A stretch of DNA of 64,000 nt from Yuukianura sp. NJ FZ-2021 (lineage: Eukaryota). A model generated the notes under the pieces. It was not told the DNA's origin, searched no databases, and saw only the letters and a list, made by a program, of their open reading frames with translations. Location of the stretch: the NCBI GenBank assembly GCA_046563655.1, contig CM102284.1:1426001-1490000 (forward strand). The letters run 5' to 3'. Of this stretch, positions 3,623 to 64,000 are shown piece after piece. Numbering within the stretch: position 1 is the first letter of the stretch; every line of letters begins with the position of its first letter. Made by a program: the position numbers and the translations under genes.

Positions 3623-4203
3623 TACTTATACTTATACTTAATTGAATTTTTCAAATGAATCTAAAAGCATCGGGCTACAAAAATCCAAAAACTTTGAAAA
3701 ATTTTCCTAATGGCAACTCTTATGGTTCAGAAAGTTATGAATAATCTGTGCCACTTAAAAGCGACTACTGGCGTTAATAAAAAAATAAGTAAAAAAAAAA
3801 AACCTTAAATTGGTTCATGTGAAAAAGCATGGAAATACAATCAGGGGAAAGAAATAATATGAATAAATTATTTCTTAAAGTAGGAATCTGTGTAAAATAA
3901 AATAAAATGGGAGTTGTATGTTATTTTTTTTCTGTTATGGTTTTTGGAACCTATTTCATTATTGAGGCACTTTGCTTGTTTTAACCCATTAAACCGATAG
4001 AATTTTAAAAAAAAGTGTTTGGTGTTGACTTACTTCTAAAAAAAGTTTGAATTTTAAGTTTCAGTTTTAAGTTTAAGGCTTTGATTGTTTGATCTTTCAC
4101 CAACAAAACGTCTTGGCTCACTCAGCAATAAAATTTCTTGAAGTGGTAACAGTTGCTGTAAAACTTAGAGGGTACAATAAAATTGAATTCGAAAAACATC
4201 AAA

Positions 4204-18106: not shown

Positions 18107-18969
18107 CACGCCGCATAAGGTTGGACTAAAACCTACAATGAGTGGCATGCCGGCACCCAATTTATTTTCTACGCACACGTGGGCAAATGCGTGAAAGTCT
18201 CTTTATTTACATATTTTATAATTTAATTAAGAATTTAATCCAGATAATTATTTATTTTAATTTAATCCTATTCTATTTATTTATAAATTTCTTAACGTCG
18301 ATGATTTATAGTCATTAAGAGTGACCTGCGAATAAACGGATTATTGACCACTGTGACATAATGCGTGCTGGGACTTCGCCCAAGCACATTCAAAGGTTCA
18401 ATCGTCCTATTAACTTCTTAGCGTTAGCCATTAATAATTTTATTTAGAATAGAATAATTATTATTCTTTAGAATATTTATTCTAATGGTAATACGCTAGA
18501 AAGTTATAATATATTATGGTGATGGTGTACTGAAAACAAATAGTTCGGAAAATTTTAGTTCTTATGACTGAGGAAGTTACATTTTAGAGTTTTCGAAAAC
18601 TACGTTACTACGCTGTTACAATTCCGGAATTACCTCGGACATGTAGTTTCTCACTTACTAGTACACGTAATACTAGATGACAGTTTGTGGTATTTTTATT
18701 TTTCAAAAATTTGAATTTCAAGGACCCTGAACGCCATTAATTACGTGTATGATGTCAAACACGTTATTCATCTTACAAGTGCTCATCATTGACATCAATT
18801 AAACACCAACCATGAAAACATGACATTTCAATGTTCCATTTCTACAGAAACTGTTCAGCGTCATTCAGAAACTAACCACACGGAATAAGGTATCGGATGT
18901 CAAACGTAATAAAAAGGCTAATGCTCAATAACAATCGGGTTCCTTTGCTTCCTGTCCAATTACCAAAAA

Positions 18970-20833: not shown

Positions 20834-21361
20834 AAAAAACTCAATTGAATTCTTTTTGAAATATTTTTGAAAGTGTCTGATTAAACGGAATTCAAATTCT
20901 TTATTTAACTGTTTATTTGGAACAAAAAATATCCCCGGACTTTGAAGAAAAAAAAATTCGGTCGTAACGCGGACGGCCAGACAGACAACGTCAGACTATG
21001 AAATAGCTTTCGCTACTTAATGAAAGCGCGAGCTAGTAAGTTTCGTTTTTTTTATTAAGAATTATCCCCTGTAACACAATTGCACTCTGAAAAAAATGCA
21101 TCGTAATTGTAATTAATTCCAATGATTCGCTCAGTTGTTGGTAAAATGCCATAAATTATGGCTTACCCAACTATCAACATTCACCGATGACATAAATATG
21201 GAAAAGCGTTACATCAGCTCAGTAATCATGTCAAGGTCGCTTGTGAGAAGAACACTTTGAACCATTGAGACTATCCACACACGAAACTGCTGCCAACACA
21301 AAAAAAGCGTTCGCCCCGTAGCAATCTTGCTTTTTTCAGTAAGAATTCAATTGTTACAAAA

Positions 21362-23684
21362 ATGTCAATTTTTAAATCTCTGATCATCTGGCTAATCCTA
21401 CTTTGTTCATCCGTTTACTCAACGGATGTAATCGAAGACACAAAGTCATACAAAAATTATAAGCTTCTGCGCACCTCAGTTTTAGAAGATATGAATGTCG
21501 CCAGTACACTGATGTCTAAACTCGACGCTACTGAAGGTGTCCATTTCTGGACATTTCCAACTGCCAAACAGACTTCGGACATTCTCGTTTCTCCAGAGAG
21601 GTATGCGCATGTCCAAAGCATTCTTGAGACGAATTCTATCACACATGAAGTACTTCATGAAGACATTGACAAACTGATCCAAGCTGAAAAGCCTGATATG
21701 CTGGAAAGAGCTGCGCTATTAGAGCGACAGGCTAATGGCCACAACATGGATTGGAAAGAGTACCATTCCTATGCTGGTAAGAAATCAAGTGATACCTCCA
21801 TGGTACCTAGAACAACTACGTTACTTCAGATACCCCGAGATACCACTTTGATTTACTTTTATAAGGTACCTTGTATCAGATACGTCATATAGGGTATCTC
21901 ATAATCAGGTACGTTATATTATATAAAGTACCCGGTATAAGGTACCCTTTATAAATGATATAGAGCACTTTATGTAACACACTTTATATAACTTTAAGTT
22001 AGCATAACCTCACATTTTGCCTAACGTTATGTATCTTGCATGAAGATATTTATGGGTACTGCGAGTACCTGGCAAACTCAGCCGAACCTAGTCCTAGCGG
22101 GGCAGTTGTGACAATGGACATAATTGGCAATACAACTGAAGGTAGAAGCATCGTCCTCTTCCGGGTTGGATTACCGGACAAACAGCCACGGAAAGCCATT
22201 TGGCTGGACGCTGGAATTCATGCTAGAGAGTAATGCCCGGAATTTTAAAATACCTAAAATTTCGTCAAATTTCGAAAAAGATATAAAATTTCTCAACAAA
22301 AAAATTGCAGATGGATTTCAACTGCAACGGTAACGTACATTCTGAACACGCTGGTTACGGAAAAGGAAAAGAGTAAAGACCTGCTTGAAGCATTTGACTG
22401 GTAAAGTTTGCATAATATTCGTAATACAGATAATATAGTGTATTAATACAATACAAAAGATTACAACGTAAATATTAAATGATGTATAATAAATGATGTT
22501 AAATTTGCCTTAGGCTAATTCTACCAGTGATTAACATTGATGGCTACGAACACACGCACAAGGTAGACCGAATGTGGAGAAAAACGCGCAGGTCGAATGG
22601 GGCCAAATCCAGTAACAGACGATGCATCGGCACCGATCCCAACCGAAACTTTGCCTACAAATGGGGCGGGGAAGGTATGAATTTAATGTAATGCATAAAA
22701 CATTCATGTATAATGTAACGCTTACATCAAATATTTTTGAATTACCATAATTTAACGTTCTATATTCATGTCCAGGGACATCCAAAGATCCTTGTAGTGA
22801 TATTTACTGTGGTCCGAATGCATTTTCCGAACCAGAAACCAGAGCCGTCCGAGACGCCATTATGAAGCGGAAGTCCGACATCGCGATGTACCTCGCATTT
22901 CACTCATACTCGCAGGTCATCATCGTACCGTGGTTAGGCCAGCGGCAAAAGCCCGCCGACTACAACCAATTGTACAACCTTGGTGTGAGAGGACAACTAG
23001 CCATTAGGAATTCAAAGTATCGGACTCAGTACAAAGTTGGACCTGGTAATGGCATCGTCACAGGGGCAGCTAGCGACTGGGCCAAAGGTTAACATTGAAC
23101 TATTCTATAGCCGAGGTTCCTTGACAACGAAAAGTTTACTTCCTTTGTTGACAAAAAAAATGAAAAAAAAAATTAGTACCAACTTAATACATACCAATCC
23201 AAAAAATTGGTACCAATCCGTATGCAAAATTAAAAAAAAATTAGCTGTATTGTTATGATTAAGATGCTCCAAAGTGAAACGAAACTTTTTTTTTTTTTTT
23301 TTTTTGCGAAATCGGAAAAACATGAGGTATTACCCCACCTGTGAAAGAAAATCCAAAGTCAACAAACCTTGTCCAAGGCAGACTGTAGTCACTCTAGCCC
23401 TACGCTTCACTTTGTTTTATATTAATTGATAATATAATTAATTTTGTATTTTTGGTACTTTCCTAGATGGCGCTGGAATCAAGTACTCTTACACGTTTGA
23501 ACTTCGAGACACCGGGAGATCGGGATTCATCCTTCCCAAAAACCAAATCATACCAAGCGGAAATGAAACTTTCAATGGAGTCAGAGCCATGGCCCTTGAA
23601 CTCAGAAACATTCTTAGCAAATATGGTGCGGAAGACGAATGGAATTGTGTAATGCGTGAGGATTTGAAAAATTTAAAATTTTAA
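21362..23684 (+). CDS. Zinc metallocarboxypeptidase M14A, tandem paralog with altered S1' pocket
   Basis: Same exon structure; GIHARE|W, NRNF, HSYSQ and FELRD intact; [10 protein letters not shown] replaces [11 protein letters not shown]; last exon starts 23467 and ends TAA 23682-23684. Confidence 0.9.
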
Positions 23685-24172
23685 GAATTTTTTTTTTTAT
23701 TTTAGTTATCACAAGGGATGTCAAAGAATATCAACCAACCCGCTTAAACACTTACTGGTAAGTTGCTGTTAGGTTCACTTAAAGCCGCTAATGAATTATC
23801 ATGTACCAAAACCTTTAAGTTATTCATAGAAACGAAACATCGAAATGCAATCAGCGAAGAAAGGATATTTTAAAAATTCATGCACGAACACAAATAATTG
23901 AGATTGGTTTCATAAAACTAAAAGGGGTGGGATTACGGATGTTTTATTTTCTCGGTTTTGTTTTGGAAATATTTCGCACAACGCTCAATACGAACAGTGA
24001 TCGGTCGGCTGAAGTTCAGCAGTTTTCATTTTTGAAAATTTTTGCACGAAATCGAAAAACCCAAGTTACTGGACAACTTCTTGTAGAAAAACATTTTTTC
24101 TTTACGAACCTTGGTTTGATCTAAAACTTCGGGAGTACAGCAAAATTTGTTTTGATAAAAAAAAGTATCAAA

Positions 24173-25500
24173 ATGATTTCAAAAGAAACGCTACGGGCCC
24201 AGGTTATAGCCACTAAATTCTGGAGCTTATTCGTGTTAAGTCCATTTCGACCCACTAAAAATTCGGAATATTTTGAAAAACCAAAGCCTTTTGTCACTCT
24301 TGGAACCAGAAAAATTTATCCTTGGCAAGCAGCCATGTGCCTCAGCATGTTCATTCATGGCACGGCTGTCATTTGCTTCACGTGGTTATTGCTTACAACG
24401 GTAATGGCTCCGTCGGAAGTGATTTTCACGATGCTCATGGCTGTACTTGGAATACTCATCACTTCTGTGGAATTGTTGTACGTCACTAGATGCGATTCCT
24501 CCTTGTCCTACATCAATGGCCTTTTGCTTCTCAACAAAAGATTAGGTAAACAAAAAAAATCAAAACACGAAAAATTTCGTGTTTAATGTAAAAATTTACC
24601 TAATGAATTATATTCACCGAATAAGAATTTCAGAAACAATTGAAATTTGTCGGTTAGAAAATATTTTTGAGAAAACCCGGATCGAGCGGGATGGACTGGA
24701 AGCTGTTGCGTGGCTTGTTGTCATGGCACCGCCGTTGTCATCTCTGTCACTTGGCTCTGGATATTACATGCTGCTCCAAGGAAACTGGAAAATCATGACA
24801 CTACCAAAATACTTCCGACAGTTCATTTGGCAATTTGATGTCTTATCAAGCATTGCATTTGGGATCGGATGTTCCACAAGTTGCTTCTATTTGCTGCTTT
24901 TCGGTCTCGAAGGGCTCATCAACATCAACTCTATGGGCAAGTGGATGTCCTACCAAAACCAATGGTAAGGTGGTTTGAATTTTTTTTTTTTTGCTTCTTG
25001 AATTTTGAAAAAAAATGAATTGTAGGAATGCAGATGGGAAGATGAAGATACGCAGTGACAGAGTTTGGTCAGTCCAAATTGCATACCGCGCTCAACAAAT
25101 TTTTCACTCCGTCTCGAACGATATTATGTTCCACATCCTGCCGGTCCTTGTGAGCTGCGCAGCAGCAATCATGATTGGTTCCTGCTTCTGCGCAGTTCGA
25201 TTCGGCGCAGAAATGTCGTCACCGGCTTTAGTGAGTGTAATTTTGATGGGTGCTGCTGCATATCTCTTCTGCTGGAAGAATATGCCACTGGCTGCGAAAC
25301 ACACCGAATCCTCGGAAGACTTTCCCAGGATTTACCGGCAGTTTGGAAATCCCGGGAAATCGACGCTCAAATTTCTGCAGTCATGTCGACCGTTGCGCTG
25401 GGAAGTTGGCGGCGCATACGCAATCAAACGAAGTACGTTCATTACACTGTTGAGTGACACTGTAATTGCCAACATTATCAACTTACTACTCACATTCTGA
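24173..25500 (+). CDS. Chemoreceptor-like multi-TM protein, paralog C (~384 aa)
   Basis: Exons 24173-24545, 24658-24964, 25026-25500 in frame; clearly paralogous to the genes at 4204 and 7106. Confidence 0.7.
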
Positions 25501-35396: not shown

Positions 35397-38300
35397 ATGG
35401 AGGGCAAGAGTTTCGTTTTTTGTTCTTTTGCAGTTCTGCTGCTGACTACGTTTTCCGTACAGATCAATGCGCAAATTAGTAAGGTTATTCAACATTTCGA
35501 AATCTGTTCAAAATGCTTCATATTCTCCATTTTGCAGTAAAATTGATATTAAACAAATTTTAATGTTAATTAATTTTAATCAAATTTAAATTTAGGCCTG
35601 TGCACATTTGATACTGATGTAACTGATGGACAACAACAGCTAGATGTAAACGAAGAAACAGATGCACAAACTGAACTTGGAAGGTCATAACTTTTTATTT
35701 ACTTTTTTACATTCACTTCTTCTTAGTAAAAAGCTAACAATTTTTGAAATTACGATTAACAGTTTTTATCTCCTTTATGATGGAACTTTATCACATTTTC
35801 TGTTTTGTCACAACTTTAATACACAATGTTAATAGATTTATGTTTTTAAAACATTTTTTTAAAACAATGCATACTTTTTGATTTTATCAGCAGAACAATT
35901 TTTAAGTTTTCTGACTTTTCCAATTTCATTCTAAAAATGAGATGAATCAGTCTAGATCCAGATATTTTATCCCGAGATACAATGTTGAGATATAATTTTC
36001 TCCCAAGATATAATTATATATAATAAAATAGTATATACAATTATTATAAACTATATATTTTTTCTCAGGTACCCTGCCGTAGGCAGCGTGACTGGCGTGA
36101 CAGTGGCTTCAGACCATCCAGATTATTTGCAATTTGCTTTCGATCCCGATAGTAAAGAACTGGTCGTAACGCTGCTCCAGGAACTCGGTGTTTTTCTAGA
36201 CAACGATGTCGCTCGCCTATTGGCTACTGTCACTCCGATATGTTCTATAACAGAAGAAGTCAGACTTCCAGTAGCATTTACCATCAACATACTCGATGTC
36301 AACAACAAACCAATTGAATTCAACGCCGACAATTTCCCCATCACAATTCAAACTCCGTGGCCAGCCGGGGTTCCTATTAACTTCAACGTTCCCATATTCG
36401 CAACCGATAATGACTATGAATTGGCAAATGCAGACGCCACTTTTACATCGGATAATCCTGTCATCATAGAAATTGTTTCTACGCTGAGTCAACCTGCAGA
36501 TGGCGGCCCCAAGTTTCGTCACGACCTGCAACTACGTCTGCTAGATCCGCAGTTGGGTGGATTAGCACAACTAGATGTTACGATAACAGCTACTTCAACT
36601 GATACATTACACACAGACACAACAGTAGTTTCCTTAACAGCAGAAAAGACTAACACGCAACCGCCAAAATTAAGTTCAACTTTGTACCAAACCAGAGGTG
36701 TTTGGGAGGACATTCCACCGCAAAATTCAAATGTTGAGTTGGACATTACTATTGGAGCAGAAGATCCAGAAGATTCAACATTTGTATTTGCAGTTGCCGG
36801 GCCACAAGGGCATTTTGTTAATATTGACGCTGCAACTGGTCAATTGACATACAATGTAATTGATCCTTCAGAAATTTTAGTGTTACGCAATGGAGTTGCA
36901 GTCATTCATCTAATTGCCCGAGAAACTACGACCGAAGCGCTGTCGTCAACGGCAACTGTGCTAATTTATTTTGCAGCTCCTGGCACCACAGGTTAGGCTA
37001 AAAGGCAAAAAGAATTTCACTCTTCACACAAAGAAACTTTGCAACTTTGACCTTGAAATCCGCTTTTGATCCTAATTTTTAGAATGAAATCAAAATTTTA
37101 CTCTAAATTTTAGAACGTTGACCTTGAAAGCAAGACTTTGACTTTGAATTTACTACTTTAAAATCGGAATCATGACTTTGATTTAGCATCAGTTTTTGTA
37201 AACTTATAACTTATACAATGTTTTGTGTAAATTTTTTTCAGTGTGCAACTACCCGCCAAAATTTGAACAAAATATTTATAAAACACGAACTCCGGTAGAG
37301 ACGCTTCCAGAAGCGGGAGATCCCGTGGATCTGGATGCGCCAATCACAGCACAGGATGCAGAAGGGACGCTATTCATTTACGAAGTTGCAACGGGAGATC
37401 ATGCTCACTTTGTAACTATTGATAAAACAACAGGAGTATTGAGCTACACGGACATTACTGAGGAGGAGGTTGCAGCGTTGCCAAGTGGAATTGCAACAAT
37501 TGAAGTAATTGCACGCGAAACTACGACGCAGGCGCCACTACTTTCAGCGACAACAGTGCTTCTCTATTTTTCGCTTCCAGAAACTTCAGGTATACATTAT
37601 GTTTTCAAAAATTAATTTTGTGCTCTATTACACTTTTGAAACCTAGACCTTGAGTTTGACTTTGACTTTCGAAAACTTTGACCTTGAGTTAAAATTTTTG
37701 ACGCTGAGTTTAAAACGTGGCGGATTTTTTTTCTAGATTTGCCCCCCGATTTTGACCAAAATATTTACGAAACCGCAAACCCGGTTGAGACTTTACCAGA
37801 ATCGGGAGAACCCGTTGATATAAACCCTCCAATCAGAGCCGTAGATCACGAAGGAGCGGTATTGGACTACACAGTCGCCGGACAGCATGCGCACTTCGTA
37901 AAAATTGACAGTGCAACTGCTGTATTAACGTTTACGGAAATAACAGCTGATGAGGTTGCAGCGTTGCCAAACGGGGTTGCATCAATCGAAGTAATTGCAC
38001 AAGAAACTGGCACGCCGGCTTTACTAGAATCATCGGCAACTGTACTCATATATTTTTCACTTCCAAACGCAGGTATTTCAACTTAACATTTCGAACATTA
38101 ATTTGACCCTATAATTAAGTTGACCCTAGAAATATTTCGAACCTAGTTTTCATAATATGAACAAAACCAGTCTATTTGAGTCTCTGCTTTTTAGAGCGCA
38201 ACATGCCGCCCGCATTTGAACAAAATATATACGAAACAAGTCAAATTGCGAAGTTGCCAACAGTAGGAGATCCGGTTGTGTTAGATACTCCAATCAGAGC

Positions 38301-40537
38301 AGTAGATCCCGAAGGCAAGGTGTTGGTCTACGCAGTCGCAGGACCGCATGCGCACTTCGTAGCTATTGATAGTGCAACTGCTGCATTAACATTTACGGAA
38401 ATAACAGCTGATGAGGTTGCGGCGTTGTCAAACGGCGTAGCATCAATAGAAGTAATTGCACAAGAAGCTAGCACGGCCGTTTTACTGCAATCATCGGCAA
38501 CAGTGCTCATTTACTTTTCACTTCCAAACGCAGGTATTTCAACTTAACATTTAGAACATCAATTTGACGCCAGTTTTCATAATTTTAATAAAACCGCGCT
38601 ATGTGTGCCTGTTTTTTTTAAAGAGAGCAACAAGCCCCCAGAATTTGAACAAAATATTTACGAAACGAGTCCAATTGAGACGTTGCCGACAGCGGGGGAT
38701 CCTGTTGTGTTACATCAGCCAATCAAAGCAGTAGATCCTGACGGTACAGTATTGGCATACACAGTCGCAGGGCCCTATGCGCACTTTGTAACTATCGATA
38801 GTGGAACTGGGGCATTGACTTTTAACGAAATTACAAATGCGGATGTCGCAGCGTTGACAAACAGCGTAGCTTCTATTGAAGTAGTCGCGCAAGAAAGCGG
38901 CACGCAAGAATTATTAGAATCATCGGCAACAGTGTTGATATATTTTTCACTTCCGTCTATGACAGGTAAATGTAAGGTGAATTTGAATTTTTTAGAATTT
39001 GTGAATTAAAACGCTCCTTTGTTTTCAGATCCAAACTTGGCGCCATATTTTGGACAAAGTATTTACGAAACTACAAATCCAGTTGAGACTTTGCCAGAAC
39101 CGGGAGATCCAGTTGAGATAAACCCGCCAATCAGAGCAGTGGACCCCGAAAGTGCAGCATTGGTCTACACAGTGGCAGGAGTGCATTCGCACTTTGTAAA
39201 TATTAATAGCTCAACTGCTGTATTAACTTTTACGGAAATAACATCAGAGGAGGTTGCGGCGTTGCCAAACGGGGTTGCATCAATCGAAGTACGTGCAACA
39301 GAAAGTGGGACGCCGATTGCACTAGAAACATCGGCAACAGTGCTCATCTACTTTCAGATTTCAGACGGTACAACAGTTTTCGCTAATTTTTTTTGAAAAA
39401 TATTGATTCAAAAAATATACAATATCTTCTTTTTTTTTTCAAATATTCAACAATCAAATGCTGCTTGTCCACCTTGCACCACAGAAGAATGTGAAGGTAA
39501 AACTGCTATTTGTTTTCTATTAAATGAGCACATATTTTTGGTGTACGACTTTTTTTTTTAAATTCGATTTCAGAAACGATTGGTTTCATCATTGCACTAG
39601 CCATACTTGCTCTCCTGTTCGTCATTGCTCTTCTTGTGGCAATTTACTTTTGGTAACAGATCATAACCTATGTTATTTAAAAAAATATCCAATTTTTTTT
39701 ATAGCTTAATTTTTTTTTTCTGTTTTAGGCATAAGCAGAGGACAGTGTCATCGTCCATGTCAAACTTGATTCGAGTGGATGACGTCGGTTTGACACCTCC
39801 TCCGCCGTTCATCGAACAGTGGGAAGACACCGCTCGGAAGTTTTCGGAAGTCAAACTCGGGAACGGTCTCTCTGACGTCGGAAAGATTCCGACGTCAGAC
39901 GTCGGCGTAGTTGCAGTAGCGCAGCTCTATGCTCCAGATAACCCTGTACAAGAAGCCGTCAACACACCGGTTGTGAATGGTAAAAGCGGCAACGGCGCAG
40001 TTTACGGTAAATTCAAAATTTGGGTTTGTGTTTTTTGAATTTCAACATATTTTGGAACACTTTTCTCTTTTTACAGACATGACGACGGATCCAGAAGAAG
40101 AAGGAGAGTATGTTGACCGAGATGTGGTAGAAAGACCGCCATCTCCCAAACCCGACTACCGTTTGAAACCGGACTTCTCCGTTCAAATTCAAGATGCTGT
40201 GCAAGTTTTTGTAATTCCAGATTCCAGTAGCGACAGTGAAACTGATGCGGACCAAGAAAAACATGAGGCTGAAGTCGCGACTGACGTTCAAGACATAGAA
40301 GTCAGTTCCAAAACTCCCGAAAAAGTGGAGACTGTCACTGAAAGTAACAAAAATGACGACAGCAATACTGCGCATGCCTCAGAAGACGCTGAAAAGGAAT
40401 CCAACAGCGAAAGAAGTGACACTGAACGGAACAAAGCAGTTGGCTCAGATGCCAAAAGTGCTACTGATTGGGAAGTTCTGCGCAACGCAGAAATCGAACC
40501 TGAAAAAGTTTTAGAATCTGAAACTGAACGCCTATGA
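35397..40537 (+). CDS. Cadherin-like single-pass membrane protein with exon-duplicated repeats
   Basis: Signal peptide MEGKSFVFCSFAVLLLTTFSVQINA; ILDVNNKP, ATDND, NxPPxF and AxDPE motifs; six similar ~115-aa domains; TM IGFIIALAILALLFVIALLVAIYFW (~39575-39652); acidic cytoplasmic tail. Confidence 0.82.
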
Positions 40538-51388: not shown

Positions 51389-52503
51389 ATGGAGACAACA
51401 ACCAATCAGAGACAACTAGTATTCAGTAGAGGACGAGTTTTGCACATACATTCTACGTTGGCACTATTTGCCGACAGTAACGACGTCTCCAATGCAAACT
51501 GGCAGCTCTTCGTGGATGACAGTTCACGAACGATAATTCTTGAATTACTTGTACCAAGCGGGAGAGAGGGTAACGCTAATAAAGGTTTCACAAATTGACT
51601 ATTTTTTGAGTTTTGAAAGTTAATTCTCTTTAATTTTTAGTTTTAGCATTGGATTACACTTTCGGTCTTAATTTGGAAAATTGTATCTACACCTATACGT
51701 TGGACAAAACGAACAAGAGTGTTCGGAAGATTAGGCCGACCTACCATGCTACGATCAGAGCAGTGCGAGACATTGGAGCCATTGAGGATCTTATTCTCGA
51801 CTTGGAGCAAACGCGTAAACGAACCTCACCAACAAATCCTATGTTCAGATTTAGCACCATTAATCTTTTAAAAATTTATTGAACTGCTATTTCAGAATAT
51901 GAACTGCTAAAAAACTTCCTGATTGACTTCAGCCACCAATGCTACATCCACAGCGAGGTAGCACATATTTACAATCATGCTCTATTATTAAATAGCTTTC
52001 GCTATTCGCTTGTGAAGTCAACTTACTGCAGGAGGCTTTAATGGCTAAAATCTAATCAATTCACAGCGTTCACCGCTTAGCACATCGCGACAAGCGAAAC
52101 ATGCTTGAACTTATTATATTACTTATATCTATATTTACTTATCTGTAGCTACAAGAGGCTTTTTATTCATGATGGTTTTTAGGCTGACATGAAAGCGTTC
52201 AGATTGGATTCTTACAATTGGGCAAACCAGCGCCCAGCAACGTGCTTTACGGATGCGCAGGAGAGAGCAGGCGCATCTACAAATGCACAAGCACCGCCGG
52301 CACAAAGAGCGTCTATCGTAGAAGCTAGATGCTCTTCGTCTCCTAACTTCAATGCTGTCAATGTGGATGCTGTCAATGTGGATGCTGTCAATGTGGATGC
52401 TGTCGATGTGGATGCTGTCAATGCGGATGCTGTCAATGTGGATGCTGTCAATGCGGATGAGATGTGGAGCCTATGGACTCGAACATGGAGTTGCCCAATT
52501 TAG
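51389..52503 (+). CDS. Uncharacterised protein family X, copy 3
   Basis: Same four-exon layout; last exon contains (NVDAV)n. Confidence 0.65.
52351..52458. repeat. 15-bp coding tandem repeat (aatgtggatgctgtc) x~7
   Basis: Directly visible; a shorter degenerate version lies at ~49663-49710. Confidence 0.95.
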
Positions 52504-53106: not shown

Positions 53107-54985
53107 TTAGACAATGTTGTCAGTGAACAAAGACGAAGGTTCCTCCACTTTGGAAGGCGTAAATGTTTGAGATTGCGGGAGATTTGGACTCTGCTCCACC
53201 ACCTTCATAGGAAAAATAATTTTTAGTTGAAATTAATTCAATATTTAACTAATTAGTTATTTAGTCTAAAGTATTTCTATATTATCTTTTTCATCCTGAC
53301 CTTTGACACAAAACCGGAGATCTGACTAATGTAGCCTTTGACTGTCCAAGTGTCATTGTGTGACCCCTGGGGAATTCTCACTAGCTCCTTCCACGGTGCA
53401 GTACAACGTCCGTGGAGCTCAGTCATCATGCGCGGTGGAATAAGGTCATCCTTAAGGCCAGACACAAAGAGTGAAGGGCATGTGACCTTTACAACCTTCT
53501 GGGCACTTTCATACTAAAAAAGATGAAATTTTAAAAATGAGCACAAAATGTTGTTGGAATTGATTAACTTAACTGCAAACGTTGCTTACTCGATTTTTGT
53601 AGCACCAATGAGGCAAGTACCGAACTATTCGAATTGGGAATAAATGCTTGGCAAGACTAGGAATTGATGTGAACGTGTTCTCAACGATGAGAGCCATCAC
53701 ACGATCACGAAAATCACAACGAGAGGCTAAGTCAATGGCGACAGCTCCACCTAATGAAGAATTTACATTTAGTTGCATGTTAGGTTAAAACTTACTTACA
53801 GCTCTCCAGATTCTGCAACGTGTTCAACAAACACATGAAGTATTTTCACTTACCGAGTGACCTCCCAAACAAAATCACTCGATTTGAATCTAAGTCATCG
53901 CGACCTTGAACAAACTTAAATGCTGCCTCAGCATCACGGTAAAACCCGGCTTCTGACGGACTTCCCTACACCCGGGAAAAAAGTCAAAATTCAGAAACGT
54001 TTTCAAAATTGTTTTTCAAAGATTCAACAAATCAAGTGACCGCTAAAATTCTGTGGAGTTCCTTGCCTCAGATAATCCATAACCTCGATACTCCACCAGG
54101 AGAATATTGCAGCGTGTTCTATTGTACAATTGTCGTGCATTTTCCAATCTGAAAGAACAAAAACACAAAGCCCAATTCAATTTAACAAAAAATTGTTATC
54201 CGTTTATGCAGAAAGGAAAGTGTTACCGATGCCCAATGTTTCCAGCGTTTCCGTGAAAGTAGATGATCACAGGAGATGCAGCTGGTTTCCCTTGTTTGAT
54301 GAGGTACGCGTGTAACTTGACTCTATCTGAGGTATGAATGTACACAGTTTCATACGGCAATGAAAGTTGACTCGGTGAGGGCACGTACACACGAGACTCT
54401 GGTGGAGCTTCTGGCTGATATAGCAAAGTGTCAGAAAAATGGTAGCCAAGACCTATTCAAAAAAAAGTATAAAAAATTGATTGATGCAATTACACTAATC
54501 AAATTCTGTGAATTCAGTAGCACCCTGATTTTGCGGCAAGAATTGTGGGGGAATAAACCGTCTAATTATTCTATTGTTGATTGACCGCCGACAATTCGAA
54601 AAGAAGTTCATAGCTGCAGGCGATCTATGGGTTATTCTGGTTCTCTCTTGGCCGCAGCCACCACTTATGTGACTGGAAACTTCATAACGAATTGACAAAG
54701 AAAGAGTGAGAGGCATAACAATGACAGATTCGCGGCAAACGCGGTTGGTTGGCATAGCAACTGAGAATGCTGAACTCTTTCTTTGCTTTATCGTCACAGT
54801 TTCCAATTGAACTTACTGAGCATAGCTATGAGGGCAACGAGGTAGGGCAGCAATCCACCGTAGTACCATGACGCAAAGAAAATGATTATGGCAAAGGACG
54901 AGGCTAGCTTCCATAAATTGGTGAGAAGTTTGAAGATAAGTTTAAACAGTGTCTTAATCAAAGCACGTCCTGTGTGAGATACCAT
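53107..54985 (-). CDS. ABHD13: Alpha/beta hydrolase domain-containing protein 13
   Basis: N-terminal [53 protein letters not shown] and GSHNDTW motifs; start taken as the first in-frame ATG. Confidence 0.93.
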
Positions 54986-56097
54986 TGGAAAGAAGGAAGA
55001 TGTCTTCGGAAACAATTTAGAATCAAGGTTCTCTTCTGAAGAAGTCTTTGCGTCGTCGTCTTTTAGGAATGGCTCTGAAGCTTCAATGGCTTCCTCACGG
55101 TTAGTATCTTCCTAAAAAGATCAAACCAAATTAACATTCTGTTTCGCCTGCAAAGACTTCATACGATTATATTAAACTAACGTTACTCCAACCGCTTCCA
55201 GAAAGTAACCGCGCGAACATGTGTGGCCTTAAGGATCTCGCCGAAAAAGCTCATAAGCTGACTAGATTGATCCTTCTTGTCAACAATACTGTCAAGTCCA
55301 GGTTCGGCCCGAGGTTAATTTTGGTAGTAGGAACAAGAAGCTCTACGAACTCCGTCGTATCCACATTTTCGGCAAAATATGACACCTGTAAAAAATAGAA
55401 ACCCTGATTAAACATTTCAACCAATAGTCATATCACGTAAGAATTTAATTAAGTTATGGAATTAATTTACACGAATTCGAAGTTATGCCACGAATTCCAC
55501 GGACCGAAACCACACCATCAGCCCAAGTCAAATATCGAATACTAACTTCTACACTTACCAAACGTCTCTCACAAAGGAATTAACCAATTACTTTTTAAGT
55601 TAACTTATTCGAATGAATAATCAAACAGCTGATTTAACAGTACAACAACAGAGTAACACTCAAAGATTGGTGGATATTAAGGTTGCCTGGGCCTTATTGT
55701 AGCCGGTGTACTGCATATTTCTTGCGGCTGCAAGGTGTGTCAACGCTTTAGTAAGGACATACGTTGGTATTCCTTCATAATATTGGAACATAATTAGCCG
55801 CATGGAATAGCTGCTACTGAATATAAAACGCACAATTACGATGTAATACTAACAATTATTACGGGTAAACCATACGTCAACCGAGAAATCGGATTGAAAT
55901 GCATCTGACTATTCCTCAGAAAGTACACAACTTTGGATTTTTTGCGCCTGCAGTCGGATTCTAATACTATTCAGACTTTTCGGAGGGTTAGTGGCCAGCT
56001 GTTGTATACATTTGATTACTATTTAGTCGGGTGAGTGCAACGTAAATTAAAAACTTAATTAATTTAACTCGGGTTTAACTGCTTTACCAATTGAACA

Positions 56098-58893
56098 ATG
56101 AGCAAGACCAAGATAAATATTATATCCCTGTGTGGTCTTAGCAATATGCGGCCATCGAAAACTACTTTGCCAGTACCAGCGGATTCGGCGGAATGGAAGT
56201 TGTATATGCAAAAGGCTGAGGATATTTGTTCTGTGAAATCCCGCCTAATCGAGCTGGAGAGTTCAGTGGCTCCAACGTTCCAGAAAGTCAAAGACTTATC
56301 CCGGGCTCAAGTAAGAATTAAGTTGGTGGTTTTCAATTTTTTTCTATTTAGCACAAATTTATAAAGAATCGACGTAACTTGCTGGGAAACGGTTGCTGGC
56401 TTTTTCCTTGCTGCTGAGTGCTGACCATATGCTATCTACTATTACTACTATTGCTTATTGGCTCATGCTTGTTCTGACGAAAGTGTTGCTAGAGAGTTAA
56501 ATTCATTGATTATGTGATTACTTTAGATTTCACAATATCTGAAGTACAAATCGCCTGGAGTGGATCTGGAAGCCGGTAAGTTCACGCTCTTGATGGATTG
56601 GCTAAAAGCGGACTTGCCTGGCCGTTCGTCTTCCGTCTCCGAATTGCTTCAGGAAATAGATCTTCCTGGAATTTTTCAAACGCATCGCCTTGTGATGGAG
56701 AACGAGTTTGAGCATGGGCTCCTATCTGATAATGTAGGCTGCCTCAAGGTGTACATGAATTTGCTCAAACAGCCTCCCACGCCAATGCCCTCGACCAGTA
56801 CTAGAAGTATTCCAAATATTAGTGACACTCCTACAAGACCAACCGTTCAACAAGCCGCCACAAGCTCCCGAGCTGTTAGGACTTCCTCAAGTCCTCCGAA
56901 AAGACAAAAGGCAAATCCTCCATCAACCGGAAGTCAACACGATGTTGTTCCTACGTCAACGCCTGTACTTCCGTCTCAGCCCGAAGGACAACCGCCCCAT
57001 ACTTCTCCTCAACGCCAAGTGAGGAAGCCCCCAAGATCTAATTCAAGTCCGTTAAAAAATAGTCCTTCACGAGTTGCATCTAGACCAACTACAAACAGTC
57101 CATCACCTCGGACACGGAGTCAGGCAGCAACGAACGCAAAGAAGAATTCAAATGAAGCTTCAACTCCTAGAGTATCAAGGCTAAGTGCCTCGTCAAGTTC
57201 CTCTTCTTCGTCAAATTCATCTTCTTCGAGGGACTCATCTTCAGCTTCATCCAGTGCCAGTCCGAGTCCATCGAAAGGAACTCCCACCACCAATACTCCA
57301 AAACCCGGGTAAGTATAACATTTGCAAGTTCATGCCTCATACAAACCCCAACCCCAGCCTGACACTTTCCCAATGTCTGTAATATTTCGTTTCTAATTCC
57401 AGCTCAAACACACTGCCACAATTGGCGAAGAGACGCGGAAGACCGGTCGGAAGACGCGGAATCGGTAGGTCGGGGACCACCCGAAGGGGTGGTCCCCTGC
57501 CGCGGAAGAGGATGCTAGCAGTTCGTTGTTACCAAGTGCCTGCAAAGCGAGCTGCACAACTGAAAAAGCTAGCCTTGGAGGATCAGCGAACTAGTTCTGC
57601 ACAATCATCGTCACCCGAAGTACGAGAAACTCGTGGAAGTCGTAGCAGTGGAGGAGCTAACAACTCGGACGAACAACGTGACTATTTGTTCTATGAGAAT
57701 CAGGAACGACGTGGTCGGTTTCTTTATCGGTTCGACTGGCAGGTAATGTAAAACAATTAATAATTCTGAATCAAGGTTTAATTCCTTACTTCCTTTGGTT
57801 GAAACAGACGAAACAATCGACGCAGCTGTACAAATTTGAAACTCCGCGGGAGTACTCTGCCACTGTTGCAATTGGCAACGAACTGTACGACCTCGGAGGA
57901 ACAGAGGTAAAGTTCAAACCGAAGTTTGGTGACTCCGGGCAGGGGTCAAACTGTGTCGAGATTTTCGGTATTGGAGGAGACCGGTTTCGACGACACGGTC
58001 CACCAATGCTGGAGAAACGGAAGGAATTCCCATCGTGTTTTCTGGATGGCTATCTCTACGTTGTGAGTTTCTCAATCAATTAATTGTTTGTTTTTGTCGT
58101 TTCTTGTCTTATTTTACTTAATTAACACAACACAACTCATATTAAGTTTTTTTTTTTTTAAAAAGATTGGCGGCTGTTTCTCTGACTCTGCAACCAATTG
58201 CTGTGAGAGACTGAATGTATCAGAGCAGGATTCACTTGAGGAATGGGAAAGGCTGCCATTTTTAGTCGAACCGAAGGGTGCACATACTGTGGTGACAGTC
58301 GACGACAAAATTTTTGCAGTGAGTTTACAATATTTTTTTAATTGAGTAATTTAGTTAGCAAAAGTAAAAGTTACCCGACATCACCATTGATTACGTTCTT
58401 CAGATTGGTGGCATTGGGCGTGAAACGTTCAGTTCTGTGGAAATGTATGATGGAGGACCAAGATGGACCCATGCTGCACCACTCACAGATGCAAGAGGAA
58501 GACATGCCTCTGTAGTTCTGGATGGTCAAGTGTTTGTCTGTGGTGGAGAGAATGAGAATGAAGATGCAATTAAGACTTGTGAGCTGTATGATCCTGAGAT
58601 TAATCGCTGGACCTCGCTTCCTTCTATGAATCACGATCGATTGGATTTCAGTAATGAACAATAAAATTCAAAATTCTAAATAAGATTCATGTTTCACTTT
58701 TGATTTTACAGATCTTTCTGTCGTGGGTGGTCGGATTCTGGCTATCGGAGGCACTTCGGATGAAACACCGAAAGAAATTGATGCTTATGATCCGAGAGAA
58801 GGGAGGTGGGAATTGGTTCCTTGGGAAAGGGCACTGCATTCTACTGGCAGTTTTTACAATGCAGTGAGTCTGCGCATGAGAGCTGAAGGCTGA
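56098..58893 (+). CDS. Kelch-repeat protein with partial BACK-like region and long Ser/Pro/Thr-rich linker
   Basis: Kelch GG/Y/W motifs (VFVCGGE...CELYDPEINRW; ILAIGG...YDPREGRW); FTLLMDWLKAD...ELLQEIDL is BACK-like; KRRGRP motif; ~7 exons. Confidence 0.8.
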
Positions 58894-59761
58894 GAGTACT
58901 ATATATACCTTCTGATTTGAGTTCCAGACAGCTTAGCATTGGTAACGTTAAGGACTTTCAGCATTTTTTGAGCGAAGACAATTCAATTGCAAAAAATGGT
59001 GTTAAAATGCTGCTATTAGTTAAGTATTTCAAGGTCGTTCAAAATTTGGAGTCTCCACAACGTTAGAACTACAGCAGAAGGCTGAGGCAGAATCGAATTC
59101 CTTGCATTTTTTTTTTCTAAAAAAGATTTTAGTGGCCTTACATAAAACGTCGTTCAAAAAAAAGACTATAGATTTCAGTGTACTTAAACATACACTTTCT
59201 TCAAAAAATAGTTTAGTTAAACCTGATTAGTTGTTGGTGTATGAGTGAATATTTTAGGTACTTACTGAAATTCCTACTTGATATTTTGGAAACTTTAATA
59301 CTCTGAAGTTTCGAAACTTCTTTGGCGTGTAAGCACGATCTGAAATTTATATAAAATTTAAAAAAAAAACATGTTTGAGGTAAAATATGATATTTTAGGT
59401 AGTTATTTATATTTTTAATAAAATATTTTCAATATTTCACCAGAATGTACACACTCTTGCTGGGGCTTCGCCCCAGACCCGTTCAACGGTACTATTGAGA
59501 ATTTAAAAAGTCTCTTACGACCACTTAAGATCACAGCACCAAAAGATAGAAATTGCGACTTAATAGCTATGTCCCAGAAATGCCTATTAAATATTATAAT
59601 GTATAATATATATGAGAAGTGTTTATTCAGCAAACCATAGTCGAGCGTGTTAAAAGTTAAGCTAGGCAAGGTAAATCGAAGAGTCGTAAGTTAAAGAATA
59701 TTTACAAAATACTTTTTAAATCGGAATTTTAAAAGTCTTTAAGTTTTCCGAAATGCTGACA

Positions 59762-62700
59762 CTAGTCCCTTGCAGTGTTGTTCCAAAGTAAGTCAACGTA
59801 CAACCGAGCGTTGACTTTTCTAAATTTGTGTCCCACGGCCTTCACTGTTTCCTTAACAGAAAATGAAATGTTTTTCATCATACTTTTTCTGTGATTTTCA
59901 GTTTCCTGTTGTTCCTCATCGTGTTTCAACATTTGCAAAAACAGCCACGCGTTCACTTCATCTTGCGTTTTGGGTGACTGGTTAACACTGGTCAAAAATT
60001 CTGTTTCCCATTCAGCCAATGTAACTGGACGTACAGCTTCATCTCCCTCAAAGAAACCTTGAAATCCAACTTCTCTTCCGACCAAGTGGAAAACGCGTAC
60101 CGAACATCTCGATTGCGCAGGCGGGAGTTTGCTCAATTCCACGATTGTCTCTGATACATTAGCATCAACAAAAGGAAGACGCAGATTCACCCAGGGATAC
60201 TTCTGCAGTTTTTTGCAAGTGACGAGGAATCCGGCAATCGCATCTGAGCGATTAACTGCTTTCGTGATGGTATGAGCTCCAATTTGCCCAATTCTGTAAA
60301 TGTAGGCAACCAAACCACGCTCAACTGCTCCCCAAACCAGTTGCTCCGACACCCACTTGGATTGTTCATAGGCATTCATCATGTTTGACGGATTTACTTC
60401 CGGTGGGATTCGATCCTCCGCCGCCTCGTAGATGGCGGAAGACGGATCCACTATGCTATCAAACACTCCAACGGTGGACATGAAGTGCATCTGCTTTGAA
60501 ACTCCTGAAAAGAAAAAAAAATGTAAATTTTTGAGAACGTATAATTTATGCTTTCAAAGAAAAACTGGTATTTTTTCTTTGTTTTAATATCTGTTTGGGC
60601 CAAAGTTTTGAAAAATGCTTCTTCTTCTTTATACCAGTGTCGTCTTTGTCGTGTTTTGAAATATCATTTTGATTTGGTGTCAGTGGCGACGCTAACATTC
60701 AAATTCGCTCTTCTTCTTACCTATTATAGCAAACTGAAGAATGTTTTTGGTCATTTCAACTGTAGTTTCTCGGAGTTGTTCGTAGCTTTTCATGAAGCTG
60801 ACTTCTGCCGCCGAGTGGAAGATGACCTTGACCTCTTGCGCTAACTTCTCATAGGTGACCTTGTCTAATCCGAAATTCGGTTTTGTCAAATCTCCCGCCA
60901 AACAGTGAACCCGTTCTAGTCCAGTCACGAACTGCCTGGAGTCGTTTGAATCCAAAGTGTTCATTAGACGGGTGTTTGCTGCGTCGTCGTTTGGCGCTCT
61001 CACGATCGTAAAAATTTCAGCGTCTTCATAAGCTTTCAGTGCATCCATAAGCAAAAGCGGTCCCAAGAATCCTGTTGTTCCGGTAATCAAAATCGCAGTT
61101 TGTTGGGGCGGGGCTTGAAAGTCTTCCGGAAGTTGAATTTCAGCATTGAAGTTAACCTGAGTAGACTCTTGTATGCCTTTTGCCAGTCCGCTCGGAGACA
61201 GCACATGTGCAAAGTCCTTTAGAACTGGAACTTTCACAAGCAAAAGCGGACTTACGTCCTGTATGTTTGGTTCCAGTTTGCTCAGTTTTTCTAAAACAAT
61301 GAACATCAGAACTGAATTTCCACCGATGTAGAAAAAATTGTCGTTAATCTCGATTTCTTCGGGATCAAGTTTGAGTACTTCTGCCCACACGGAACGGACA
61401 GTCAGGAGCCAATCAGAAACTGGTGCATCCTGTTTCGGTAACAGAGCGACGTGATTGGTCGGATCCTGGATTGTATGTCGTCGATTGGCCAGTATTTCCT
61501 TCAAGTTGGCTCTGTCAATTTTTCCTGATGCAGTTAGTGGCATTTCGTCCAGAAAAATTATGGAGCGTGGAATGGCGTGACGCTGAAGGCGTTCGAGTAA
61601 AAACACGTCCAAAACGGATCGCTCAGGTTCAATTCCACCTTGGTGCAGAGTATAAAATGCAAAAATTTGTTTGTTCGTATCATCTCCACTTGCACTATGC
61701 GCCAATACAACAACTTGGCGAATCCCAGGAAAGCTGCTTAAAGCAGATTCGATTTCTCCGAGTTCGAGTCGAATGCCGTGAACTTTGACCTGGTCGTCTT
61801 CCCGCCCTGTGACAAAAAGTTCACCGTCTTTAGACCAATATCCGCAGTCTCCAGTCTTGTACAAAGGATTGACGTTAGGATCGAATGGATTTGGCGTGAA
61901 TACTTGAGCTGTTAGTTCCGGTTGCCAATAGTAACCATGCATCAGCCCTTCACCAGCTACATAAATGTCGCCAACCACGTCGGGGTCAGTGACCTTTTGA
62001 CCTTGTTCGTCCAGAATGTAAATCAGAACTCCTTTGGCCGGTTTTCCCACACTCGTCGTCACTGCCGTTCCTTTGGATATCCGGCAAACCGCCGCCAAAA
62101 ACATCTCCGTTGAACCATATACATTGTACACCGTGAAATTAGCTTCGTCCATTCTGATTCGTTGTGGATTGAGTCGTGCACCGCCGACAAAAACCCAACG
62201 AAGAGTCGTCATTTTGTCTACATCTTTTGCCATTAGGAGTTCGAGCAGAGGTGTCGGAAAAGCGGCGGCGGTAATACCACGTTCAGTAATCCATGACCGG
62301 TATTGATCGATATCGAGCTTCACTTCTCGTGCCGGTATGACCAGTGTACCGCCTTTTGTGAAAACTGGCCAGATATCGCATAACGACACAATGAAACTTA
62401 TGGAGACTCCCATGGCACTCCGCATATCGCTTGTGAATGTCTCCGGATCTGTTTCTACAAGCGTTTCGATTGCCGCGACAACAGAACTGTGCCGAACTAG
62501 CACAGCCTTCGGGGTTCCTGTCGATCCAGAAGTAAACAAGCAGTAGGCGACGCCTTCCAGCGCTTCAGCGTCTTCTTCATAAATTTCTTCAACGTCTTTG
62601 TTGGTTGCTGGAAAAACAAATGACGTTTAAAAAAATGGTAAGGTTAGGCTAACACTAAAAATTTTTTTGAAAATAATTTTTAAAAAATTTCACACGTTTT

Positions 62701-63143
62701 GGTGACGATGGTATCCCAGCACAACTCATCCATTCCAGATTGTCTTGAGTGAAATGAAGATTTGGATAAGCATGTCCGAATTCAGTGTTCAGAGTGTCCC
62801 ATTTGACTTGTGTCGTTACAACTGGCGGGAAATTGAGCATCTTTAAGCATTTCTGGACTTGGGCGCCAGGGTAGTTGTCATGGAGAACTACAACAATTTT
62901 GTTGACATAGAGCGTTGCCAGGGATGACACTATGTATTTGATCCCTCCAGAAACGAGTGACACCACAAATGGATTCCGAGTGAATCCGAGTTCATATTTT
63001 TTTGCAAATGCTGTCACTTTGTCGTGCAATTCTGCGTAAGTCCAACTCCGATTGAATTCATCTTCCACAGCGATTTTAGACGGAAACGCTTGCACGGTTT
63101 GTTCAAAAATTTCCCAGATCGTAGATTCTTTAACAGTAGTCAT
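59762..63143 (-). CDS. Single-module NRPS-like enzyme: adenylation - thiolation - thioester reductase (A-T-R), ~1025 aa
   Basis: Exons 63143-62696, 62607-60721, 60504-59762 join in frame (3078 nt). A domain: FTSGSTGTPK, NVYGSTE, YKTGD, GREDDQVK..G.RLELGEIE, SGKIDR. T domain: FFYIGGNS. R domain: TGTTGFLG, HSAA, YEQSK. Confidence 0.93.
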
Positions 63144-64000
63144 CCTGAAAGTGGTTAAAAATCGCTTGAAACTAGCTTTTAAAAACTGGAACTAAAAAAA
63201 AAATTTTTTTTTGTCGAAATTTAGAAAACCTAGCACACTTTCTTTGGATTGCATCGTACCGTTGCAAGGTTTTGTTGCACGTCAGAATGTAATTATGTAA
63301 TGGATTGGAACGGGTTTTATTCACAAAAAAAAATTTTTCAAACACTCAGAATGTTTCTGAAACTTCAAAAGCGGTCTTAAGCGATAACAAGGCTTTTTAC
63401 GACCTTTATACTCTTCTTATACAAAAGAAAGATAAAAATTGGAACCTAGCCTTACTAACGACAAAAGAATAAACATAATCTTTCTTAAACCAAACTGTTC
63501 AAACATCAAGAACTGAAAAAAATTGGACTTTGTTTGACACAGATACTCATTGTCATTACAAGAAATTTTATACAAGGCTATCTAAATTTAAAAAAAAAGT
63601 TTTTCTTTTTAAATTTCACAAAATAGAAAAACGAGATTTTTGATGTTCAACTTATTTGAATAATTTCAAAATATATCATTGTCATTTTTCCTCGTATTTT
63701 TTTTATAATTTTTTTCACAAATTGTTTAATTTAAGTTAGCTCACATAGTATGTCCAACTTGTGTGCCAAATCAAAAACTCCGTTTATATGTGCTGAGTAT
63801 TGCAAATATATAGCTGACGATGTTTCACAGAAATGTTATAGTTGGTATAACTGCTCTGTTATTATCGTGATGAAAAACGCGTGAACTTTTGACCTGAAAC
63901 TGCTAACCTAATCAGGGCAAAGTCAACACAAGCTTATAAAACTCCGTTTCAGTGACTTCCACAACTCTCAGTAGATATTCTCTAATGAGGTTCCAGAAAA

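Follow-up and report, generated by a model that had tools for sequence, protein, structure and literature searches.

A window of 64,000 nucleotides (nt) from contig CM102284.1 of the Yuukianura sp. NJ FZ-2021 genome assembly GCA_046563655.1 (positions 1,426,001 to 1,490,000 of the forward strand) was found to contain, at positions 59762..63143 of its minus strand, a gene for an enzyme composed of an adenylation (A), a carrier (T), and a thioester reductase (R) domain. The gene consists of three exons and two GT-AG introns, which upon splicing give a 1025-codon frame, and it is probably a springtail nuclear gene for a single-module carboxylate reductase of bacterial A-T-R ancestry, related in type to nonribosomal peptide synthetases (NRPS-like).

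The first-pass annotation of the window had placed the introns at 62608-62695 and 60505-60720 and predicted a protein of about 1025 amino acids (aa); all of these values were verified by direct reading of the minus-strand sequence. The exons joined by a script gave a coding sequence (CDS) of 3078 nt with one terminal stop, corresponding to 1025 aa. The features of the gene are as follows.

62696..63143, minus strand: exon 1, 448 nt, start codon ATG at 63143-63141; N-terminal part of the adenylation domain
62608..62695, minus strand: intron 1, 88 nt, GT..AG, phase 1, GC 0.23
60721..62607, minus strand: exon 2, 1887 nt; remaining adenylation domain, carrier domain, and N-terminal half of the reductase
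60505..60720, minus strand: intron 2, 216 nt, GTAAGA..AG, phase 1, GC 0.31; splits the reductase domain
59762..60504, minus strand: exon 3, 743 nt including the stop codon TAG at 59764-59762; C-terminal half of the reductase with Tyr824/Lys828
61520..63107, minus strand: adenylation domain, residues ~13-512, with intron 1 inside; Ile222 at the position equivalent to Asp235; A10 Lys512
61277..61399, minus strand: carrier domain, residues 553-593; phosphopantetheine-attachment residue Ser581 (codon 61315-61313)
59837..61087, minus strand: thioester reductase domain, residues ~657-1001, with intron 2 inside; GTTGFLG at 659-665
59622..59627, minus strand: AATAAA polyadenylation-type signal of presumed function, 135 nt 3' of the stop codon (TTTATT on the plus strand)

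Intron 1 starts with GTGTGA after position 62696 and ends with TTTTTCCAG at 62608, and the 3' end of intron 2 is TTTTCAG at 60505. Both introns are AT-rich compared with the CDS (GC 0.457). The stop-to-stop frames of 178, 644, and 263 codons are in register with the splice sites, which cannot be chance in a window of approximately 38% GC. An alternative in-phase GT donor at 62725 was considered as a candidate for intron 1; its use would remove 10 aa from the protein, and it fits the donor consensus more poorly at the +3 and +5 bases. In the list of open reading frames (ORFs) of the window, no ORF of 60 aa or more was present upstream on the same strand up to position 64000.

The Pfam profile AMP-binding matched exon 1 (profile positions 1-99 on residues 13-110, E = 2.9e-10) and exon 2 (positions 158-384, E = 3e-42), with AMP-binding_C and PP-binding (E = 2.2e-06) also matching exon 2. 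The NAD_binding_4 profile was cut exactly at intron 2, with positions 1-123 found in exon 2 and positions 130-238 in exon 3; since the profile runs from 123 to 130 across the junction, splicing of intron 2 restores a continuous reductase domain. The core motifs A3, A5, A7, A8, A10 (Lys512), the carrier Ser581, the GxxGxxG motif at 659-665, and Tyr824/Lys828 are present, and the GGNS motif of the carrier domain aligns with GGHS/GGDS of the bacterial relatives. All the sequence characteristics of a single-module NRPS-like A-T-R enzyme were thus observed, namely the A-domain motifs, the carrier serine, and an SDR-type reductase with the Tyr/Lys pair. The initial statement that the core motifs are intact was correct for the catalytic motifs, all of which are retained, but not for the amino-group-binding Asp, which has been lost (Ile222). 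A single NAD_binding_4/TIGR01746 domain ends approximately 24 aa short of the C-terminus. Pfam and NCBIfam scans of the 1025-aa protein revealed no condensation domain and no additional N-terminal domain.

The NCBIfam model for amino-acid adenylation (TIGR01733) scored 253.7 bits on exon 2 and 22.7 bits on exon 1, below its cutoff of 317.4, and the thioester-reductase domain model (TIGR01746) matched exons 2 and 3, the latter covering positions 129-345 of 371. The highest-scoring full-span curated models were those of AusA (252.7 bits, exon 2 residues 4-626) and MxcG (248.8 bits, residues 12-626), with scores far under the equivalog cutoffs (2500 and 2300, respectively). The Lys2 model (TIGR03443), matching chiefly the T-R part, gave 198.5 bits on exon 2, with the best stretch at 335-626, and 44 bits on exon 3 against a cutoff of 1030, and the carboxylic acid reductase (CAR) model NF041592 gave 110 bits in the R region only against a cutoff of 1300. 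The solved relatives of the A-T part were LgrA, ApnA, and McyA, and those of the R domain were a type I polyketide synthase (PKS) reductase, the Mycobacterium tuberculosis Nrp reductase, MxaA, CAR, and AusA. For exon 3, the closest solved structure was that of the MxaA reductase (E = 5e-11); the CAR R domain matched the R domain in its N-terminal half (E = 6e-13).

To characterize the relatives of the protein, exon 2 was used as the query in a word-indexed search of 5.8 billion proteins, in which 7999 candidates were scored, 6727 had E ≤ 0.001, and the best 120 were listed. Among these 120 matches, the sole close relative was P0001 (805 aa, from an assembled public run), sharing 50% identity with exon 2. 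The next matches scored at most 292 bits and were A-T-R proteins with 28-32% identity over 97% of exon 2; condensation-adenylation-carrier fragments reached up to 37% identity over part of the exon, and the lowest-scoring listed match had 208 bits. All 18 of the 18 organism-named matches were bacterial and none was eukaryotic, which agrees with the microbial affinity proposed at first pass. They belonged to Bacteroidota, Cyanobacteria, Actinomycetota, Myxococcota, Chloroflexota, Acidobacteriota, and other groups. Since springtail, mite, and insect proteomes are included in the database, an arthropod homologue of even 35% identity should have ranked second; no annotated arthropod protein was placed above the bacterial matches among the 120 listed. 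Placement in a pan-arthropod clade, which had been named as an outcome contrary to the initial interpretation, was therefore not observed, and the ranking supports a gene outside any pan-arthropod family. In the Atlas, the nearest cluster was a bacterial A-T-R cluster at 0.97, while a fungal A-T-R cluster was found at 0.89.

Further searches did not extend the family. A search among shorter proteins gave 503 matches with E ≤ 1e-10 out of 5618 candidates, with a best identity of 41% among the 120 listed, and did not reveal fragments of any close relative. In metagenome contigs, a scan yielded 144 pattern matches at 18 loci, all with 26-40% identity, and no family member. The exhaustive search of representative proteins with exon 2 returned 192,085 matches with E ≤ 0.001, of which the 150 listed were giant multi-module synthetases of 4872-7864 aa ranked by summed scores and were uninformative for relatives.

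P0001 and the spliced protein share 46% identity over 800 aa, starting from the same Met. The frame and the alignment of P0001 run unbroken through the position of intron 1, the homology stops exactly at the residue preceding intron 2, and the P0001 frame ends 21 aa later. The simplest reading is that P0001 comes from a eukaryotic relative that would have intron 2 and lack intron 1. The end of homology exactly at intron 2 therefore suggests that this intron predates the split of the two forms. Directly before the ATG of the window gene, at 63144-63150, an acceptor-like sequence TTTCAG/G was observed, and the read-through residues Phe-Arg preceding the start Met are the same in P0001; the site may be a conserved acceptor of a 5' untranslated region intron or a trans-splice site.

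A phylogenetic tree was constructed from 47 A-T-R proteins: the spliced protein, P0001, and every one of the 45 bacterial matches in the list that have a reductase domain. The spliced protein and P0001 were united with a Shimodaira-Hasegawa-like approximate likelihood ratio test (SH-aLRT) value of 100.

The genes surrounding the reductase gene are those of an animal and encode a WD40 protein, glutaredoxin, CCT5 (five exon blocks), M14 carboxypeptidases, a carboxylesterase, an acyl-CoA-synthetase-type protein, and a Kelch-repeat protein (Kelch_1, E = 1.9e-16), the gene of which converges on the reductase gene. The earlier description of an intact, intron-bearing microbial-type A-T-R gene among ordinary animal genes was confirmed with respect to the domains, the introns, and the Kelch neighbour. 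In a tree of 26 CCT5 proteins, the composite CCT5 of the window grouped with those of Orchesella dallaii and Allacma fusca (SH-aLRT 100), and this springtail clade was sister to insects. The position inside the springtail clade identifies the host as a springtail (Collembola). In the Atlas, a carboxylesterase exon of the window was placed near eukaryotic clusters only. The animal assignment made at first pass can thus be narrowed to a lineage known for transferred NRPS and PKS genes (PMC5490193, PMC10531068).

The GC content at third codon positions (GC3) of the three reductase exons ranged from 0.42 to 0.47, within the range of 0.34-0.55 observed for 17 host exon segments. The relative synonymous codon usage of the gene correlated with that of the host exons with r = 0.65, while host exons split into halves gave r = 0.80. 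Because GC3 and codon usage resemble those of the host exons, contamination or a very recent arrival is unlikely. A tblastn search with the spliced protein (E ≤ 1e-3) matched only its own three exons, indicating that the window contains no further copy. An AMP-binding gene located at 43.8-44.9 kb was considered and rejected as such a copy, being an unrelated gene of the acyl-CoA-synthetase type. No tailoring genes were found beside the reductase gene within the window.

Among sequencing runs, five DNA runs and no RNA run were found to contain the stretch; four of them derive from a single sample, and the fifth belongs to a different organism and study. Their contigs were compared with the window over positions 54000-64000. 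In the second organism, the Kelch gene was covered at 57731-59008 with about 3% difference, and pieces of the reductase gene were covered at 59941-60487, 60728-61093, and 62741-63167 with 3-9% difference. These three listed coding pieces (1340 nt) are free of gaps, whereas 41 gaps were counted across the four flank pieces listed (~2370 nt). Contigs with a similarity of only 80-95% accumulated over the gene in every run, and not over its flanks. In run X2, one clean contig with a depth of 209 was observed over 54216-57228, and summed depths reached ~290-990 over the gene, although a summed contig depth is not a copy number. Loose contig ends clustered at 59456-59487 and 63194-63222; a short, palindromic, dispersed repeat and an A/T run are located at these boundaries of the pile-up. 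The pile-up of 80-95%-alike contigs together with the clustered loose ends suggests several diverged copies of the gene located in different contexts. The listed CDS indels keep the frame (+9 at 61193 and a +1/-1 pair at 62303/62306; 55 further rows are unlisted).

Several side observations were made on these contigs. The element at 59458-59486, 275 nt downstream of the stop codon, is palindromic (GCTGGGGC-TTC-GCCCCAGAC); many contigs in all four runs match only this piece of ~30 nt, with unlike sequence on both sides, and it looks like a dispersed genomic repeat. An X2 contig (depth 51, shorter side 83 letters) joins 62542 to 62694 and skips 62543-62693. Intron 1 and 65 nt of exon 2 are missing from it, so that it is 21 codons shorter than the spliced mRNA and stays in frame. 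This joint may stem from a paralogue that, as in P0001, has no intron 1, or from the way the contig was aligned. Contigs in all four runs skip 154 or 183 nt within intron 2 (60534-60716), and other copies or alleles seem to carry a different or shorter intron 2 with exons that can still be aligned. The joints connecting ~58143-58164 to 63193-63213 were rejected as artefacts of A/T runs at both ends; the listed joint has a shorter side of 20 letters.

Taken together, the ranking of matches, the family-model scores, and the absence of the gene from annotated arthropods make an old transfer of the A-T-R gene from bacteria to springtails likely. The signs of a horizontally transferred gene settled in its host were found together: the nearest named relatives are bacterial, and the gene has introns, host-like composition, a polyadenylation signal, and animal neighbours. 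A number of observations weigh against this interpretation or against its details. The springtail pair is placed on a very long stem (1.51 substitutions per site) and nests in no named bacterial clade of the 47-protein tree, the tree analysis marks its join to P0009/P0023 as a potential long-branch artefact, and an identity of ~30% to bacterial A-T-R proteins denotes a distant relationship. The bacterial origin is drawn from match ranking and family-model scores, the tree being composed of the springtail pair and the bacterial matches. The exon-intron structure and splice junctions are predictions from DNA alone, and three of the five listed coding differences are synonymous, too few to show selection. 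The substrate-binding pocket of P0001 differs at ~7 of 10 positions, so the substrate may not be conserved between the two family members. Finally, the Kelch gene and the reductase gene are not connected by any single Logan contig, with breaks at 59116-59155 and 59448-59457.

The long stem, the placement among bacterial proteins without a named sister, and the identity of only ~30% to any listed bacterial protein would also be compatible with an old, vertically inherited eukaryotic A-T-R enzyme, akin to Lys2, glycine betaine reductase, or the mollusc formyltransferase-A-T-R (Fmt-A-T-R) enzymes, that was lost in most animals. An intron common to two forms of 46% identity implies long residence in eukaryotes, and the scattered occurrence of NRPS genes in animals may reflect old acquisition and loss (Suring et al. 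2023, PMC10531068). Such vertical descent is nevertheless rather unlikely: none of the 18 organism-named matches among the best 120 was eukaryotic in spite of the springtail, mite, and insect proteomes in the database, the Lys2 model scored lower (198.5 bits) than AusA (252.7) and MxcG (248.8) and far under its own cutoff of 1030, and the protein has one R domain instead of the A-T-R-R arrangement and no N-terminal formyltransferase. Contamination with bacterial or fungal DNA, or a misjoin of the contig, would account for the microbial-type architecture, the bacterial best matches, and the lack of a Logan contig continuous from the 3' flank to the Kelch gene. This explanation is very improbable in view of two phase-consistent AT-rich GT-AG introns, one of them interrupting a domain whose profile continues across the junction, the host-like GC3 and codon use, and the AATAAA after the stop codon. 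Moreover, an X2 contig (record 12) runs from the 3' flank at 59458 into the gene at 59810, other contigs tile to the Kelch gene with breaks of only 40 nt and 10 nt at low-complexity or repeat sites, and a second organism from another study has both Kelch and reductase sequences. Contamination, which the first-pass annotation had itself raised as a possible refutation, thus appears unlikely on the evidence of introns, composition, polyadenylation signal, and the second organism.

The contigs of 80-95% similarity confined to the gene, the loose ends just outside it, and the loss of the conserved Asp235 could also indicate that the copy in the window, as one paralogue in a multi-copy family, is decaying or not expressed and lacks a function of its own. 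This is quite unlikely, as 1025 codons remain open at ~38% GC with all catalytic motifs present, and the listed CDS indels preserve the frame. The Asp to Ile change is found in the 46%-identical relative as well, and it is therefore better explained as old and retained than as decay. With regard to the substrate, an amino acid was considered; its reduction would yield an amino aldehyde, with pyrazine- or piperazine-type products formed by dimerisation as in bacterial and fungal single-module A-T-R enzymes. The A domain is of the amino-acid adenylation class (exon 2 by itself scores 253.7 bits with TIGR01733), and its best solved relatives LgrA, ApnA, and McyA activate amino acids; nitrogen heterocycles occur in some springtail defensive secretions. 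An amino-acid substrate is, however, unlikely, since the Asp pairing with the alpha-amino group is Ile in both members and Asp in 45 of 45 bacterial relatives, and the summed TIGR01733 score (253.7 + 22.7) is under the cutoff.

For the specificity of the A domain, the specificity Asp of motif A4, which is Asp235 in GrsA numbering and pairs with the alpha-amino group of the substrate, is replaced by Ile222 in the alignment to LgrA, which has Asp. The equivalent position is occupied by Ile in both springtail-type proteins (2/2) and by Asp in all bacterial A-T-R relatives (45/45). The other pocket positions, assigned by motif anchors on the 47-protein alignment, carry small or hydrophobic residues (V, C, A, F, G, V, L, and A, followed by Lys512). 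The Ile at this position and the hydrophobic pocket suggest that the substrate is probably a carboxylic acid that is not an alpha-amino acid. The candidate, proposed with roughly even confidence, is a hydrophobic acid that lacks an alpha-amino group, for example, a fatty, aryl, alpha-keto, or alpha-hydroxy acid.

The history and the action of the gene may be reconstructed as follows. The ancestor would most likely have been a bacterial amino-acid-adenylating enzyme of the A-T-R type that entered the springtail lineage by an old horizontal transfer. After the transfer, the gene would have gained spliceosomal introns, host-like composition, and a polyadenylation signal, and diverged into at least two forms (46% identical), with several copies probably present. 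If expressed, the A domain would adenylate a carboxylic acid, probably not an alpha-amino acid, in an ATP-dependent reaction, and the acid would be loaded as a thioester on the phosphopantetheine of Ser581, the arm of which would have to be installed by the host's own phosphopantetheinyl transferase (PPTase). In the R domain, NAD(P)H would then deliver a hydride and free an aldehyde, possibly reduced onward to an alcohol. This order of chemistry follows established thioester-reductase-terminated NRPS-like enzymes and CARs. Some relatives (MxaA and the mollusc thioester reductase) reduce their product further to an alcohol (PMC11869996), and in Folsomia, a single PPTase co-regulated with an NRPS has been described and proposed to activate the springtail NRPS (PMC10531068).

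In comparison with known systems, the bacterial stand-alone A-T-R proteins (e.g., the Chryseobacterium and cyanobacterial proteins P0004, P0006, and P0016) have the same domain order, a length of ~970-1070 aa, and the same core motifs, and are the best full-length matches to the springtail protein; they keep the Asp235 equivalent and lack introns, whereas the springtail pair occupies a long separate branch. The terminal A-T-R modules of AusA (aureusimine) and MxcG (myxochelin) correspond to the top-scoring curated models, and the R domain has structural matches in the AusA and MxaA reductases; unlike AusA and MxcG, the springtail protein is a single module without a condensation domain. CAR, fungal Lys2, and the glycine betaine reductase ATRR share the same chemistry, i.e., adenylate formation, a carrier thioester, and NAD(P)H-dependent reduction. 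ATRR has the architecture A-T-R-R with two tandem R domains (cited in PMC11869996), whereas the springtail protein has one. The first-pass annotation had contrasted the protein with Ebony and AASDH, which carry a C-terminal amine-selecting domain and PQQ-like repeats, respectively, after the A-T part. Neither C-terminus is present, the reductase being the sole C-terminal domain detected with Pfam and NCBIfam, but the contrast overstated the uniqueness of the protein because animal NRPS-like enzymes ending in a reductase, including those of molluscs, have already been described (PMC11869996).

The mollusc Fmt-A-T-R enzymes (bursatellin/oxazinin) are likewise encoded by an animal, bear introns, and end in a thioester reductase; their closest homologues are bacterial, and an ancient transfer is suspected (PMC11869996). 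They differ in having an N-terminal formyltransferase, a tyrosine substrate, and a gene cluster (PMC11869996). The springtail protein, whose A domain begins at residue 13 and which has neither a formyltransferase nor the amino-binding Asp, is set apart from them by this description. The ACV synthetase and other NRPSs of springtails occur in the same host group and have the same proposed route of transfer (PMC5490193, PMC10531068); the ACV synthetase is a three-module NRPS with condensation domains that produces a tripeptide, while the window protein is a single-module reductase. Judging from its domains and model scores, the springtail protein is not a member of the CAR, Lys2, ATRR, AusA/MxcG, Ebony, AASDH, or Fmt-A-T-R groups.

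In Folsomia candida, 36 clusters have been reported, of which three are NRPS clusters (PMC5490193), and the ACV synthetase and further NRPSs are known in Folsomia and Holacanthella (PMC10531068). Reductase-ended NRPS-like proteins of animals include mollusc Fmt-A-T-R and homologues of glycine betaine reductase (PMC11869996). The A-T-R architecture is not mentioned in the text of PMC5490193 and PMC10531068, and no description of a springtail A-T-R enzyme was found in the literature, the supplementary cluster tables of these two papers aside. Since transferred NRPS and PKS genes in springtails and A-T-R enzymes in molluscs are already published, the present gene extends a known kind.

Outside the reductase gene, several other regions of the window were recorded. 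Several tandem paralogues of a multi-pass membrane protein, the exons of which start with MISKETLR and end with ANIINLLLTF, are located at 2173-8959 and 24125-25500; of the exon segments compared with Pfam, 3116-3619 gave a sub-threshold match to Tetraspanin (E = 7e-4) and 5437-5904 gave no match. The carboxylesterase-family exon at 11053-11997 (COesterase, E = 4.7e-55) has GEVSA where the nucleophile motif of the family is expected, and the encoded esterase-like protein may be non-catalytic. At 18922-20539 and 21269-23092, two M14 carboxypeptidase genes lie in tandem, with propeptide exons that are nearly identical. The region 35989-39396 contains at least six exon-sized repeats of ~125-135 aa with the pattern ...PPxFEQNIYET...HFVxIDxxTGxLT...ATVLIYF..., the first and longest block of which had no Pfam match at E ≤ 0.001; they are reminiscent of cadherin-like repeats. 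A minisatellite with a 15-nt unit, one frame of which translates to (HIDSI)n, was observed at 52135-52470, and long low-complexity frames rich in Ser, Pro, and Thr lie at 56527-57751, upstream of the Kelch repeats on the same strand, with no Pfam match for 56527-57309.

It is tentatively proposed that the gene belongs to a springtail-restricted multi-copy family, which would be derived from bacterial amino-acid A-T-R enzymes and shifted by the loss of the Asp to the reduction of a hydrophobic non-amino acid, giving an aldehyde or alcohol for an undescribed cuticular, pheromonal, or defensive compound of springtails; it might then be the first A-T-R pathway of arthropods. A role of the product in defence or signalling, which had been suggested at first pass, is speculation. 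Springtails are the best-known arthropod case of microbe-derived antibiotic-type genes, including the ACV synthetase, IPNS, and many PKS clusters, and an A-T-R reductase would widen the animal-encoded repertoire by a reductive release that yields aldehydes or alcohols. The gene provides a concrete, clonable target for a springtail natural product, and the Asp to Ile change in both forms offers a testable case of a transferred amino-acid-activating enzyme that may have been re-purposed in its new host.

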